From positions 1-64,000 of IMG/VR virus record IMGVR_UViG_2513237361_000012: DNA of 64,000 bases. One strand, 5' to 3'. Both the position numbers and the translations under genes were made by a program. How positions within the stretch are numbered: position 1 is the first letter of the stretch; every line of letters starts with the position of its first letter. The notes under the pieces are model-generated. The model saw only the letters and a list, made by a program, of their open reading frames with translations. It was not told the origin of the DNA and made no database searches. Shown piece after piece: positions 43,616 through 52,412 of this stretch. This DNA comes from a virus. Lineage: Duplodnaviria; Heunggongvirae; Uroviricota; Caudoviricetes.

Positions 43616-43842
43616 TGGCTGATGCAATGGATCTCGTACAGCAGCGCGTTGAAGAAGAACGCCAGCGCCATATCCGTGCTGCCCGTGCCAAAACACCGGG
43701 CGTGTCTCGCGTGCTTTGCATTGAGTGTGAAGCGCCAATTCCGCCAGCACGCCGCCGTGCCATTCCGGGTGTGCAGCTTTGCATTACCTGCCAGGAAATT
43801 GCAGAGCTGAAAGGCAAACATTACAACGGAGGTGCTGTATGA
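43615..43842 (+). CDS. TraR/DksA-family zinc-finger protein
   Basis: CIECEAPIP...CITCQ four-Cys motif; overlaps dam start by ATGA. Confidence 0.6.
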   Translation: MADAMDLVQQRVEEERQRHIRAARAKTPGVSRVLCIECEAPIPPARRRAIPGVQLCITCQEIAELKGKHYNGGAV

Positions 43843-44696
43843 GCACCATTCTGAAATGGGCGGGTAATAAAACCGCCATTATGTCCGAACTGAAAAAATA
43901 CCTTCCTGCTGGCCCGCGACTGGTTGAACCTTTCGCGGGTTCTTGTGCTGTGATGATAGAGACGGATTACCCCAGCTATCTTGTTGCGGATATTAATCCT
44001 GATTTAATCAACCTCTATAAAAAGGTTGCTGCTGATTGCGAGGCGTTTATATCTCGTGCCAGAGCTTTATTTGAGGAAGCAAACAGTGAGCTGGCTTATT
44101 ACAACATAAGGCAGGAGTTTAATTACTCAACTGAAATTACTGATTTCATGAAAGCGGTATATTTCCTGTATCTCAATCGTCACGGTTACCGTGGGTTATG
44201 TCGCTATAACAAGAGCGGGTATTTCAACATTCCCTACGGTAATTATAAAAATCCGTATTTCCCTGAAAAAGAAATTCGCGCATTTGCAGAGAAAGCCCAG
44301 CGATCAACGTTTATCTGCGCCAGCTTTGATGAAACGCTGGCGATGCTGCAGGTGGGGGATGTGGTGTATTGCGATCCGCCTTATGACGGTACGTTTTCCG
44401 GTTATCACACTGACGGCTTCACTGAAGATGACCAGTATCACCTGGCATCCGTTCTTGAACATCGGTCATCAGAAGGACATCCCGTCATTGTTTCTAACAG
44501 TGACACATCCCTGATCCGTTCGCTGTATCGCAATTTTACTCACCACTACATCAAGGCAAAACGCAGCATCAGTGTGGCAGCTGGTGATAGTAAATCTGCA
44601 ACAGAAATCATTGCTGTTTCCGGGGCGCGCTGCTGGGTGGGATTTGATCCTTCGCGTGGCGTAGATAGTTCTGCTGTGTACGAGGTGCGTGTATGA
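43839..44696 (+). CDS. dam: DNA adenine methyltransferase (Dam-like, N6-A MTase)
   Basis: N-terminal KWAGNK...PFAGS (SAM binding) and DPPY catalytic motif. Confidence 0.85.
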
Positions 44697-47107
44697 GTCA
44701 TGACGATATGAGCAACTCTAGCGGCTTTAACGAGGCCGCTGCATCATTTTCATGGAACGGCCCGAAAAAGGCCATTAACCCTTATCTGGACCCGGCGGAA
44801 GTTGCGCCGGAGTCTGCACTTTCAAACCTGATCACTCTGTATGTTGCCGATAACGAGCAGGAACAACTGCGCCGCGAGGCACTGAGTGAGCAGGTCTGGG
44901 AGCGTTATTTCTTTAATGAATCCCGTGATCCTGTCCAGCGCGAAATGGAGCAGGATAAGCTCATTAGCCGGGCAAAGCTGGCGCATGAGCAGCAGCGTTT
45001 TAATCCAGACATGGTCATTCTGGCTGACGTCAACGCCCAGCCTTCCCATATCAGCAAGCCGCTGATGCAACGTATTGAATACTTCAGCAGCTTGGGCAGG
45101 CCAAAGGCTTATTCCCGCTATTTGCGTGAGACGATTAAGCCATGTCTGGAACGACTGGAGCATGTACGCGACAGTCAGCTATCCACTTCTTTTCGCTTTA
45201 TGGCAAGCCATGAAGGGCTGGACGGCCTGCTGATCCTGCCTGAAATGAGTCAGGATCAGGTGAAACGCCTGTCTACCCTTGTCGCTGCGCATATGAGCAT
45301 GTGTCTTGATGCCGCTTGTGGTGATTTGTACGCCACCGATGATGTTAAGCCAGAAGAAATCCGCAAGACATGGGAAAAGGTGGCAGCGGAAACCCTACGT
45401 TTGGATGTCATCCCGCCTGCGTTTGAGCAACTCCGTCGGAAAAGAAACCGCCGTAAACCAGTGCCCTATGAACTCATTCCGGGCTCGCTGGCGCGTATGC
45501 TGTGCGCCGACTGGTGGTATCGGAAATTGTGGAAGATGCGTTGCGAATGGCGGGAAGAGCAGTTGCGTGCTGTCTGCCTGGTCAGCAAAAAAGCATCTCC
45601 CTATGTCAGCTATGAAGCTGTGATGCATAAACGTGAGCAGCGCCGTAAGTCGCTGGAGTTTTTCCGTTCTCATGAACTGGTGAACGAAGACGGAGACGCG
45701 CTGGATATGGAAGATGTGGTAAACGCCAGCTGCAGCAACCCGGCGCATCGCCGCAATGAGATGATGGCCTGTGTTAAAGGTCTGGAGCTTATCGCGGAAA
45801 TGCGCGGTGACTGCGCCGTTTTCTACACCATTACCTGTCCGTCACGTTTCCATTCCACGCTCAATAACGGCAGACCCAACCCGACCTGGAAAAACGCGAC
45901 GGTAAGACAAAGCAGCGATTATCTGGTCGGTATGTTTGCTGCATTTCGTAAGGCGATGCACAAAGCCGGGTTGCGCTGGTATGGCGTGCGGGTGGCTGAG
46001 CCGCATCACGACGGCACAGTTCACTGGCACCTGTTGTGTTTCATGCGCAAAAAAGACCGCCGCGCCATTACTGCATTGTTGCGTAAGTTTGCTATCCGTG
46101 AAGACCGCGAGGAGCTGGGCAATAACACGGGGCCGCGCTTTAAGTCTGAGCTGATTAACCCGCGCAAAGGAACGCCGACAAGCTACATAGCGAAATACAT
46201 CAGTAAGAACATTGACGGGCGTGGTCTGGCTGGCGAGATCAGCAAGGAAACGGGTAAATCTCTTCGTGATAACGCTGAATACGTGAATGCCTGGGCGTCT
46301 TTGCATCGTGTTCAGCAATTCCGCTTCTTTGGTATTCCGGGGCGTCAGGCTTACCGTGAACTGCGATTGCTGGCTGGTCAGGCGGCAAGGCAGCAGGGTG
46401 ACAAAAAAGCAGGTGTGCCGGTACTGGATAACCCGCGCCTTGATGCCATTCTGGCTGCTGCTGATGCTGGTTGTTTTGCCACCTATATCATGAAGCAGGG
46501 AGGTGTACTGGTTCCCCGTAAATATCACCTCATCAGAACCGCTTATGAAATTAACGAAGAGCCGACCGCCTATGGCGATCACGGTATTCGTATTTATGGC
46601 ATCTGGTCACCCATTGCAGAGGGCAAGATCTGCACTCATGCAGTGAAGTGGAAAATGGTTCGTAAGGCCGTTGACGTTCAGGAGGCGGCAGCCGACCAGG
46701 GCGCTTGTGCCCCTTGGACTCGTGGCAATAACTGTCCCCTTGCTGAAAATTTGTACCAACAGGAGAAAGATAAATCAGCTGATGGGGACACCAGAACAGA
46801 CATTACCCGCATGGATGACAAGGAGTTGCACGATTACCTGCACAGTATGAGCAAAAAAGAGCTCCGGGAACTGGCAGCAAGGTTACGCCTGGTTAAGCCG
46901 AAACGGCGTAAAGACTACAAACAGCGAATTACAGATCATCAGCGACAGCAGCTCGTCTATGAACTGAAGTCCAGAGGATTTGATGGCAGCGAGAAAGAGG
47001 TCGATTTACTCCTTCGCGGTGGCAGTATTCCGTCAGGAACAGGCCTGCGTATCTTCTATCGGAACCAGCGTTTGCAGGAAGATGATAAGTGGCGGAACCT
47101 GTATTAA
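44693..47107 (+). CDS. A: Replication initiation endonuclease A (P2/186 gpA family)
   Basis: 804 aa, rolling-circle initiator-like, canonical position after early genes. Confidence 0.8.
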
Positions 47108-47199
47108 TTACGCGGGTTAACAATTCGTGCTCTTAATAATACCAGGCATATCAGGCTGATGAACGTAAAAAAACGTTTTACATCAGTAAGATTATTATA

Positions 47200-47219
47200 T
47201 ACTGTAAATATAAACAGTG
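47200..47219. promoter_or_regulatory. LexA (SOS) box
   Basis: TACTGTAAATATAAACAGTG fits CTGT-N8-ACAG consensus; upstream of DinI/Tum-like gene. Confidence 0.65.
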
Positions 47220-47388
47220 GATATGCATACAGTATTGCTTGTGGTGTCATAGGAGGAAAAATGCAGGACTATTTTTTGGAGTCTTTGAAGCTCCAGCGCA
47301 TTGATTTTTTTTCTTAAGCTTGTAGCGGCTAGTGAGTGTAGTGATGAAGAGAAGGGGCTGGCTTTGCAGTGGGTTTCTGAATTGACTG

Positions 47389-47682
47389 ATGAACTCATGG
47401 CAAAAATCAGAACCCACGAATACAACCGCTCAATGGATGTCATCAGTTGAGGTGACTTTTATGCGCATTGAAATAATGATCGATAAAGAGCAGAAGATTA
47501 GCCAGTCTATCCTGGACGCCCTTGAATCCGAGCTTTACCGCAATTTGCGCCCCCTGTATCCAAAAACGGTAATTCGTATCCGCAAAGGTAGCTCTAACGG
47601 TGTGGAACTGACCGGACTGCAACTGGACGAAAGAAAGGAAGCAAGTGATGAAAATTATGCAGAAGGTGTGGGAAGACGATAG
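47389..47682 (+). CDS. DinI-family protein (Tum-like SOS-inducible factor); start may be at 47461
   Basis: C-terminal about 74 aa (MRIEIMIDKEQ...) resemble DinI family; LexA box upstream as for 186 tum. Confidence 0.55.
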   Translation: MNSWQKSEPTNTTAQWMSSVEVTFMRIEIMIDKEQKISQSILDALESELYRNLRPLYPKTVIRIRKGSSNGVELTGLQLDERKEASDENYAEGVGRR

Positions 47683-47870
47683 CTGGCTGCATTAAGAAAC
47701 GTTGCCCCCAGTAGGGTTCATTCTGATGGGGGCTAGTTTGAGCAACGAGTGAAACGAGGCGTTAGGTGGGAGGCCATTTTGATAAGTTATCACCCACTTT
47801 ATACCAATAACAGAACTGCGTAATAACTATTTACCTCGGGGGGGAGATGTGAGCCATACAAATTTCAGTA

Positions 47871-48929
47871 TTAATTTTCAATTCCCTCCATTTTACAATG
47901 AGTTTTTTCCCAGAACTGTAATACAACAGGACTAGCCCACTCTGGCATCAGTGCGTTATTTAAAAAACTGAAAACATCATGAGACGCATCAGCATTTTTT
48001 CTAAGGAATTTCCAGCCTTTTCTAGTATTTATCTCAACAATACCTAACCCACCATCATCAAACATATGCATCTTGAATTCAGGATTGTTTACACCTAGAG
48101 ATTTTATTTCTTTTATGTATGGACTATCTTCATCCATAAATATTTTCTCTATGTGCTTAGCACAATGATATATTTTATTTCGATAAGTTGATACGCTCAC
48201 AGCGGTACGCGCTGTTGTTATTCCCATTCCTAATGGGGCATATGCTTTTCCATCCATCACTACGGGCAGATTTATTCCATTTTTTCTTAAGTTTGCAATA
48301 TCTGAATCTGTAGTTGGATGAATACAAGCTAAGCCTGAAATACCTTTCATTTCAAATATTTCTGCTGCTTCTGGCCAGTTGCGTATGAATGTTTCTACCA
48401 AATCTCTTTGAGAAAAAAGATTTGGTTCTATGTTTTTATCATGATGTTTTATATCAATAAAAAGCACAGCGTTTGAGTACACCTTCAGGAATAATACCCA
48501 CTCAGCACGATCTGAGTATTTTTTACTTGAACTTACTGGATTTAATGGCAGATGGAGGTGATGAATCCCCCAATCAGCCCATAGGTTATCCGTTCTTTTC
48601 GTCGCCTTTTTACCGCTTGTGTCATTGAATAATGTTAATGTTTTACTCTGATAAGGATTTACATCACCACCAGTAGTAAACAACATCTCGATTCTCTGCA
48701 ATCCAACCCTTGCGCCATCGTGAATATTTTCAGGAAATCGATCTGATTTTAAAATTATTCGTTTTTGTGGAACAATGTAGCGTAAAAGAAAATCACACCA
48801 CCTCAGTAGAGGATCGTGAAGATTTGAGTGCCCGGATTCATCATATAATAACCCAAATGCTTGAATTCCCTTCTCTGAAATTTCGTCAATATCTTTGATT
48901 AGATTAATATTTTTTCGTGCGTCCAACAT
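47871..48929 (-). CDS. Hypothetical 352-aa protein, accessory cargo
   Basis: Long uninterrupted AT-rich ORF between tum-like gene and cos/retron; no family recognised by eye. Confidence 0.6.
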   Translation of the reverse strand: MLDARKNINLIKDIDEISEKGIQAFGLLYDESGHSNLHDPLLRWCDFLLRYIVPQKRIILKSDRFPENIHDGARVGLQRIEMLFTTGGDVNPYQSKTLTLFNDTSGKKATKRTDNLWADWGIHHLHLPLNPVSSSKKYSDRAEWVLFLKVYSNAVLFIDIKHHDKNIEPNLFSQRDLVETFIRNWPEAAEIFEMKGISGLACIHPTTDSDIANLRKNGINLPVVMDGKAYAPLGMGITTARTAVSVSTYRNKIYHCAKHIEKIFMDEDSPYIKEIKSLGVNNPEFKMHMFDDGGLGIVEINTRKGWKFLRKNADASHDVFSFLNNALMPEWASPVVLQFWEKTHCKMEGIEN

Positions 48930-49323
48930 ACTAACTCCGTTTAAATATAATTTTTTAGTATTTCAGTTAATTAATATCTATACGCCGTTATAGCTGAATT
49001 TTCCGGTGATTTCAGGGCACATTAACCAATTTAGATAATACTATAGTAATGGTTGGGCTGATTTTTCAAGAACAAAAGTAATTTTCAAGCTTTGTAACAT
49101 GTTGATTTTCCACTTTTCGCTCAAGCGAGCTTTCATCTTTGCAAGCCCATATGTTCGTTTTTCAAGCGATTATTCAGATACGTTAACTTCCCATGGCAGT
49201 GCATGACTATGCTGCATGAAATCGCATGATCGATCGAGGATCGTCTATGCTTAGACCAGCCAGAAATGGCGGGCTTTTGCTCATGTCATGCAGCTGCATG
49301 AAAACCACTGCATAAAGTGGGCA

Positions 49324-49342
49324 GGCGTGGCGGGGATACGAG
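49324..49342. other. cos-like cohesive-end site
   Basis: GGCGTGGCGGGGA matches the first 13 nt of the 186/P2 cos sequence as I recall it; position between A-side genes and Q. Confidence 0.4.
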
Positions 49343-49412
49343 GGCGCGCTATCACGTAAAATAGGCAAAATACTTCTGGAAAACAGAAAGTTGAAGTGAT
49401 ATGTTCATAAAC

Positions 49413-51342
<1,930 letters not shown>

Positions 51343-51383
51343 TGAACAGCCCTAACGTTATGAACGCTAAGGCTGATTTTTCG

Positions 51384-52412
51384 TTAAAATTTATATGGTT
51401 TGAATTGTAATATATTATCTTCAAGCCATTTATTTAATTCCTGCATCCTTTTCTGTAAGGGTATTAATTCGTTCCTCACAAACACTAAACTCGCTTTTTC
51501 CACATCCCCAAACCCCCCGACATTATTTGGCATAATCCCCATCATTTGCGGCGGCACACGATGTGCTGCCATCATGTCATCCCGACTCACGTTCTTGATA
51601 TTCAAAAACTCATCCTTCGCTGCGACCTCTGACAACGGGATAATCTGAAGTCCGTCCTTTTTGCCGTTAGGCGAGTACATAAACAGATTGCGGAAGTTGC
51701 CAGGGCCTTTGGCGCTTTTCATCGCATTGCGGAGGTTGTTCACATCCTCCTGGTTCTGCGCTGCATCGGTCATGTACATGATGAAGCCTGCATGACTGCC
51801 GTTAATGTAATACTTGCGGCGGAACAGCGTGGCGGACTCGTTGAGCAGAGCTGACGGAATGGCAGAAAGATAACCGGGCAGGCCGTAGATCTCCTGGTTG
51901 ATGTCCGGTTCCATCAGATGAAAAATGTTGCCTTTCGTGAACTGATACGGCTGCGTAGTCATGCCGTATTGCACAAACCAGTAGGTATCCAGGTCTAACC
52001 CGCGTCGGGTGTATTTTGCCAGTGCAGGCTCAAGGGCGATAACTTCACCGAAGCGGTTCGTGCGTTTCTCCAGGTAGGCGTTACCAAAAACCAGATAGTC
52101 CTGTACAAAACGCGAAAAAGCCTGCTGGCTGAGCAGCGGGTGAGGGATGTAGGTGCTGGTCAGAATGTTGCACTTCACTGCAATCGGTGAGCTGTGATGC
52201 ACGGCGGCGCGGAAGGTTCGCGCCAGTCCGTCGAAACTCACAGGCGGCTCATACCAACGATCCATCTGTACGCATTCCACATAGTCCAGCAGTTCGCGGC
52301 GGTCCAGAACAGGAACGGGATCACCGAAGCTGAATGCTTCGGCTGAAGTCTGGCTTTTATGCTGGCTCTGTTTCGTCGACGCAGCGCGGTTCTTCTTACT
52401 CTTTCCCATCAA
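51384..52412 (-). CDS. Q: Portal protein (P2 gpQ-like)
   Basis: 342 aa, position and orientation as P2 Q next to terminase P. Confidence 0.85.
   Translation of the reverse strand: MMGKSKKNRAASTKQSQHKSQTSAEAFSFGDPVPVLDRRELLDYVECVQMDRWYEPPVSFDGLARTFRAAVHHSSPIAVKCNILTSTYIPHPLLSQQAFSRFVQDYLVFGNAYLEKRTNRFGEVIALEPALAKYTRRGLDLDTYWFVQYGMTTQPYQFTKGNIFHLMEPDINQEIYGLPGYLSAIPSALLNESATLFRRKYYINGSHAGFIMYMTDAAQNQEDVNNLRNAMKSAKGPGNFRNLFMYSPNGKKDGLQIIPLSEVAAKDEFLNIKNVSRDDMMAAHRVPPQMMGIMPNNVGGFGDVEKASLVFVRNELIPLQKRMQELNKWLEDNILQFKPYKF

Follow-up and report, generated by a model that had tools for sequence, protein, structure and literature searches.

A 352-residue prophage protein next to an Ec67-family retron matches the stand-alone defence gene PD-T4-7 and has a predicted RelE-like core

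Introduction

The stretch of DNA analysed here (the window: 64,000 nucleotides, positions 1 to 64,000 of the Caudoviricetes record IMGVR_UViG_2513237361_000012) carries a long AT-rich open reading frame (ORF) next to a retron. The ORF occupies positions 47871-48929 of the minus strand (1059 bp, from an ATG start to a TAA stop) and encodes 352 aa. A sequence-only reading had left the protein without a family and had offered a choice between an independent single-gene defence and a partner of the retron. The locus thus raises the question of what this protein is, whether it depends on its neighbour, and how it might act. The ORF list and a cos alignment bore out the description of an intact ORF between a tum-like gene and the cos site. 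The G+C content of the ORF (0.358; 0.332 in the 268-bp upstream region) is, as had been noted, far below that of the phage core on either side (replication gene, 0.526; portal gene, 0.502).

Results

The ORF corresponds to PD-T4-7

The label 'unrecognised' does not stand: PADLOC assigns the protein to PD-T4-7, whereas Pfam, PHROGs and NCBIfam gave no significant match. The PADLOC model PDLC04066 (PD-T4-7) matched residues 1-342 over profile positions 1-335 of 337 (E = 8.8e-144, 476.6 bits), and a second PADLOC model, PDLC04065, matched with E = 1.9e-39. The PD-T4-7 family is included in both PADLOC and DefenseFinder. A tblastn search of the protein against 50,697 phage records returned no match. 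Exact-sequence look-up identified the protein as WP_000883169.1, labelled 'hypothetical protein' in every source, and a copy of at least 99% identity is present in 48 of 5,426 complete E. coli genomes.

PD-T4-7 was obtained by functional selection from E. coli UMB0103 (RRN43039.1), and was grouped with the toxin-antitoxin-like systems whose protection works by abortive infection (Vassallo et al. 2022, Nat Microbiol; PMC9519451). The published ORF (337619-338677, 1059 bp) was cloned alone as the segment 337452-339101 (PMC9519451). These limits, comprising the ORF with 167 bp on its 3′ side and 424 bp on its 5′ side, translate to 47704-49353 in the window, which is the cargo cassette plus cos as delimited below, without retron sequence. 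The window ORF shares its length and locus with the validated gene; the HMM (hidden Markov model) match is full-length, the prophage slot and the cassette limits are the same, and so is the presence of an upstream region of its own. Nothing substantive differs, and in effect this is the same gene. From these comparisons we infer that the window gene is PD-T4-7, probably near-identical to RRN43039.1 at the residue level. The features of the cassette are as follows.

47871-48929, minus strand: PD-T4-7 coding sequence, 352 aa, exact sequence WP_000883169.1
48435-48758, minus strand: predicted RelE/ParE-superfamily (BECR) toxin-like core, codons for residues 58-165
47874-48434, minus strand: variable C-terminal region, residues 166-352, proposed regulatory or sensor part, without a similar solved structure
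48930-49197, minus strand: AT-rich 5′ part of the cassette, including GGAG and a sigma-70 promoter candidate
47706-49197: whole PD-T4-7 cargo cassette, 1,492 bp, delimited by a sister prophage with an empty tum-to-cos slot

The outer limits were set by blastn of the window against that sister prophage (L019), in which homology stops at 47705 and restarts at 49198. A Shine-Dalgarno sequence, GGAG, lies 5 nt 5′ of the PD-T4-7 ATG. A promoter scan of the upstream region yielded a candidate sigma-70 promoter (-35 TTGAAA at 49069, -10 TATAGT ending at 49040; 10 of 12 matches), and the number of sites in this region was not above the expectation from shuffled sequence. The whole region 48930-49197 is contained in the published active clone.

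cos separates two cargo slots

Phage 186 has an annotated 19-nt cos, which matches 49324-49342 at 15 of 19 positions, and the block 49198-49360 is conserved in 79 P2-like phage records. Phage backbone containing cos therefore lies between PD-T4-7 and the retron. The features of this region are as follows.

49198-49351, plus strand: conserved phage cos region, backbone not cargo, with cos at 49324-49342; it parts the PD-T4-7 slot from the retron slot
49352-51459, plus strand: retron Ec67/Eco2 cassette, not part of PD-T4-7 (NCBIfam, PADLOC, a1/a2 repeat, RNA fold)
about 49405-49555, plus strand: retron non-coding RNA (ncRNA), from the a1/a2 repeat and RNA fold
49582-51342, plus strand: 586-aa RT-Toprim protein, start ATG 49582

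Comparison of the hotspot across related prophages, which the sequence-only reading had proposed, showed that PD-T4-7 recurs in its slot while the neighbour across cos varies. Of the 48 E. coli genomes that carry PD-T4-7, 47 lose homology to the window at about 49351. The cos-to-portal slot of the three cases inspected (ET350, MS6198 and a Logan contig) held a 593-aa GmrSD-type protein (DUF262/DUF1524) and no retron; the GmrSD-type genes lie at L002 7763-9544, L003 7763-9544 and L018 1686-3467, and the segment exchanged for the GmrSD cassette corresponds to window positions 49352-51459. Most E. coli copies of PD-T4-7 have the GmrSD enzyme across cos, whereas in the window this slot holds the retron. 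Conversely, the retron cassette was found in 14 complete genomes, and PD-T4-7 accompanied it only in NCTC8623. The tum-to-cos slot of the retron genomes inspected was empty in H57 and held a 111-aa DUF8087 gene in H61 and H65. In phage 186 the same slot is filled by orf97, annotated 'expression from plasmid blocks 186 infection'.

These comparisons show clearly that the P2/186 gpA-to-portal hotspot is divided by cos into two cargo slots, each assorting independently of the other: tum-to-cos (PD-T4-7, DUF8087, orf97 or empty) and cos-to-portal (retron Ec67, GmrSD or empty). The cos-proximal hotspot of P2 was already known (PMC9122126). The PD-T4-7 and DUF8087 cassettes have common outer ends of about 113 bp (47706-47818) and about 90 bp (49108-49197); recombination might use these ends as handles. 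The genes tin and old of P2 and orf97 of 186 occupy the same place between the replication/tum genes and cos, and share the low G+C content and a superinfection-exclusion role, but their proteins are unrelated to PD-T4-7. In addition orf97 lies on the opposite strand to PD-T4-7, inside the SOS-induced p95 transcript.

PD-T4-7 is independent of the retron

The neighbouring retron is genuine, as the sequence-only reading had stated. Its protein is an Ec67-family RT-Toprim (NCBIfam NF038237, E = 4e-212; PADLOC RT-Toprim_I-C), the a1/a2 inverted repeat (49413-49425/49531-49543) forms the stem, and the ncRNA folds at -59.3 kcal/mol (z = -3.5). Rfam gave no match in 47000-52000, and Rfam 15 is silent at E up to 1 even for the Ec67/Eco2 ncRNA. 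The longest ORF for the retron reverse transcriptase (RT) has 609 aa with a GTG start, and the RefSeq coding sequences in sister genomes have 626-646 aa. These longer starts fall inside or upstream of the retron msd (the stretch concerned is 49513-49581 in the window), whereas the known 586-aa Ec67 RT begins at ATG 49582; the N-termini annotated in RefSeq probably reach too far upstream.

The suggestion that PD-T4-7 is an accessory component or partner of this retron draws on their adjacency and divergent orientation, and on the presence of the retron RT on all three context-bearing contigs that carry the exact window allele of PD-T4-7. It is largely refuted, and we give it hardly any credence. 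The cos backbone separates the two genes; the retron is found in 1 of 48 PD-T4-7 genomes and PD-T4-7 in 1 of 14 retron genomes; elsewhere PD-T4-7 is paired with GmrSD, and the retron with an empty slot or DUF8087; and the PD-T4-7 clone is active without the retron. Retron Eco2/Ec67 is itself a minimal, self-sufficient, single-protein system of type I-C1 without an associated gene cluster (PMC7736814). Because the slots assort independently and Eco2 is self-sufficient, the adjacency is a coincidence of two cargo slots and not a partnership: PD-T4-7 is unlinked to the retron and functions independently of it.

Retron Eco2/Ec67 cuts tRNAs once phage DenB has degraded its multicopy single-stranded DNA (PMC12916289). 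The element across cos from PD-T4-7 in the window is one triggered by a T-even endonuclease. GmrSD, like Eco2 and PD-T4-7, is directed against T-even phages.

A large family of single genes

A word-index search found 129 homologues, all unnamed, in Gamma- and Betaproteobacteria. The family is far more widespread than this search indicates: an exhaustive profile HMM search gave 3,482 clusters (50% identity) at E ≤1e-3, among them a separate subfamily of about 290-300 aa, and 1,257 clusters at E ≤1e-30.

In an alignment of 74 homologues the residues R50, R57, N91, D114, L116, W120, H124, H126, D159 and H163 are invariant, as are P186, R215, G236, A240 and T242 further along. Conservation is highest in the core (0.61, with 0.73 in the insert 87-121) and lowest (0.385) in residues 241-352. 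A Gly/Thr-rich loop, PLGMGITTART (residues 232-242, codons 48204-48236), contains the invariant positions G234, G236, T238, A240 and T242; it falls in the one internal stretch that the structure model places with low confidence and that seems to be flexible, where the predicted local distance difference test score is below 50 at residues 235-239.

No conserved neighbour accompanies the distant homologues in Providencia, Aeromonas, Variovorax and Methylophaga. The Providencia gene sits in an integrase/AlpA island together with AAA ATPases and a type IV enzyme of the PvuRts1I/SRA kind, the Aeromonas gene is flanked by an amidase and a metallo-beta-lactamase gene, the Variovorax gene is separated from housekeeping genes by gaps of 51 bp and 61 bp, and the Methylophaga gene adjoins pgsA. 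A small upstream ORF was considered as a possible antitoxin gene and rejected: the longest in the cassette has 31 aa and overlaps the candidate promoter, and the distant homologues leave no room for one. As no ORF above 31 aa lies upstream in the cassette, there is no separate antitoxin. Since the neighbours vary, both within E. coli (retron or GmrSD) and among distant genera, and since the published clone holds only this ORF, PD-T4-7 is a single-gene system without an obligatory partner. This, with the PADLOC assignment, upheld the suggestion of independent single-gene defence cargo.

Predicted fold

In the AlphaFold2 model of PD-T4-7, 76 residues align to RelE at 2.4 Å. The predicted order of elements is strand 58-61, helix 71-86, the conserved insert 87-121, strands 122-126, 144-150 and 154-162, and helix 175-184. 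The model predicts a fold of the RelE/ParE-superfamily (BECR) toxin type for residues about 58-165. The predicted strand 122-126 carries H124 and H126; D159 is on strand 154-162, with H163 immediately after it. The best of the weak Foldseek matches in the PDB were YafQ, Cami1, HigB and ParE. The confident structure prediction backs the weak published 'RelE-like' hint, whereas the 'sheath-like' hint found no structural support.

Sequence-level comparisons lent this fold no support. Pfam searches at E up to 10 with the 74 aligned homologues gave no consistent family. The 13 Pfam families of BECR toxins yielded no significant match in any of the 74 members; a single member reached E = 0.042 with ParE_toxin. 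The family profile found only chance matches among PDB sequences (ankyrin, MLKL), hhalign of the profile with E. coli YafQ (query verified as identical to 4ml2_A) gave a probability of 0.09, and Foldseek against the PDB returned nothing below E = 0.4. Charge analysis revealed no basic core across the family. A conserved small neighbour gene, as expected of a classical type II toxin-antitoxin pair, was absent in every PD-T4-7 context examined. An alignment by eye of DWILIYKL...TH87 of YafQ with EWVLFLKV...HH163 of PD-T4-7 was discarded for want of statistical support because the hhalign probability was only 0.09.

PD-T4-7 has no detectable sequence similarity to RelE, YoeB, YafQ, HigB or YafO and no cognate antitoxin gene. 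Compared with RelE/ParE toxins it is four times larger, with a conserved insert of 35 residues and some 185 additional residues at the C terminus; its family is not uniformly basic, and it is only a putative RNase. The survey of mono- and multidomain RelE/ParE toxins by Gerdes takes Pfam families as its starting point and makes no mention of PD-T4-7, which is consistent with a family invisible to Pfam.

Other readings of the protein

The segments WGIHHLH and VLFIDIKHHD had drawn attention as a possible degenerate PD-(D/E)xK motif. Both are present and belong to the most conserved part of the family: WGIHHLH and FIDIKHH form its core, since W120, H124, H126, D159 and H163 are invariant in the 74 homologues. 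A PD-(D/E)xK enzyme degrading phage or host DNA would agree with the superficial fit of 'FIDIK' to (D/E)xK, with the invariance of D159, and with the many P2-hotspot systems that have PD-(D/E)xK-like motifs (PMC9519451). The motif itself is not conserved, however: of the 74 members, 26 have K at position 161, 33 have R and the remaining 15 have other residues, and PD-T4-7 does not show the restriction-endonuclease-like alpha/beta fold. The nuclease is therefore largely refuted, and we regard it as highly improbable. A true PD-ExK domain does occur in a hybrid protein, P0116 (L022 666-1562), though there it replaces the region of PD-T4-7 concerned.

P0116 bears more directly on another division of the protein, in which residues 1-127 would be a portable sensor or adaptor and residues 128-352 an effector of unassigned fold. 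Its residues 12-129 are 45% identical to residues 9-127 of PD-T4-7, ending at WADWGIHHLH; next comes a DUF1780/PA4535-like domain (Pfam E = 2.7e-15; PDB 1y0k, E = 6e-13) with the motif PD...EVK. The break falls within the proposed toxin fold. P0116 comes from a single 3.1-kb metagenomic contig of one sample, and could reflect either a natural exchange of domains or chimeric assembly. When residues 1-127 were searched by themselves, only fragments and no second fusion architecture came up; these residues contain only two short strands, too few for the 76 residues that align to RelE at 2.4 Å, and D159 and H163 are invariant yet lie beyond residue 127. We consider this division unlikely. Only slightly better are the chances that the domain is BECR-like without being an RNase, and acts as a ParE-like gyrase poison, by binding or sequestering a target, or through a His/Asp cluster that binds a metal or ligand for other chemistry.

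Other genes of the neighbourhood

At lower window coordinates than the cassette lie a 186-type replication endonuclease gene (44693-47107) and a DinI/tum-like gene (47461-47682; Pfam DinI, E = 2.7e-11); the portal and terminase genes are also in the neighbourhood. The DinI/tum-like protein has 73 aa in the window and in AEME01000001.1, and 77 aa in NCTC8623 and JALXJT010000002.1; the gap reflects a small C-terminal change in a prophage that is otherwise 99.9% identical. The prophage also has a Dam-type DNA adenine methylase gene (43779-44696), immediately upstream of the replication gene. The retron-Ec67 element as described in 1990 reportedly encodes a reverse transcriptase and a Dam methylase, which fits the gene in the window.

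Discussion

We think it likely that PD-T4-7 is a stand-alone abortive-infection defence, carried as moron-type cargo by a 186/P2-like prophage and relying on a cis-regulated BECR-type mechanism. Death of the infected cell is probably brought about by a RelE-type toxin domain and not by a DNA nuclease. The invariant His and Asp residues on and just after strands of the core sheet (H124, H126, D159 and H163) may cluster and, together with R50, R57, N91 and D114, would form an endoribonuclease site for the cleavage of mRNA or some other RNA, so that translation stops. Such a toxin would have to be restrained in cis because there is no separate antitoxin. In the lysogen the N-terminal helices, the variable C-terminal half or both would keep the core switched off, and a signal of T-even (T4-type) infection would release it; the cell would then stop growing or die before phage progeny form, and the infection would be aborted.

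The features that point indirectly to control in cis are the toxin-like gene standing alone and the variable C-terminal half. The proposed autoinhibition would follow, by analogy, the logic of CapRel and Cami1. In CapRel, a fused toxin-antitoxin (PMC9712102), the toxin is a tRNA pyrophosphokinase and not of the BECR fold. Cami1 (CARF-RelE; PDB 8phb/8phj) is activated by cyclic tetra-adenylate through its CARF domain, which PD-T4-7 lacks. The C-terminal region of PD-T4-7 matches no known sensor fold.

The window ORF is thus an already catalogued and experimentally validated defence gene, neither a new system nor a retron component. The mechanism of PD-T4-7 itself is unpublished. What the present analysis adds is incremental: structural support for the RelE-like core, four invariant candidate catalytic residues (H124, H126, D159 and H163), the extent of the family, and the arrangement of two slots around cos. 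A bolder reading, to which we hold only tentatively and which is rather doubtful, is that PD-T4-7 founds a large Pfam-invisible class (the 3,482 clusters) of multidomain RelE/ParE-fold toxins, in which a cis-autoinhibited core would be joined to a C-terminal direct sensor of T-even phages with a new fold, as a counterpart of CapRel. If so, the P0116 hybrid suggests that the N-terminal segment of about 127 residues may be an exchangeable module driving different effectors.
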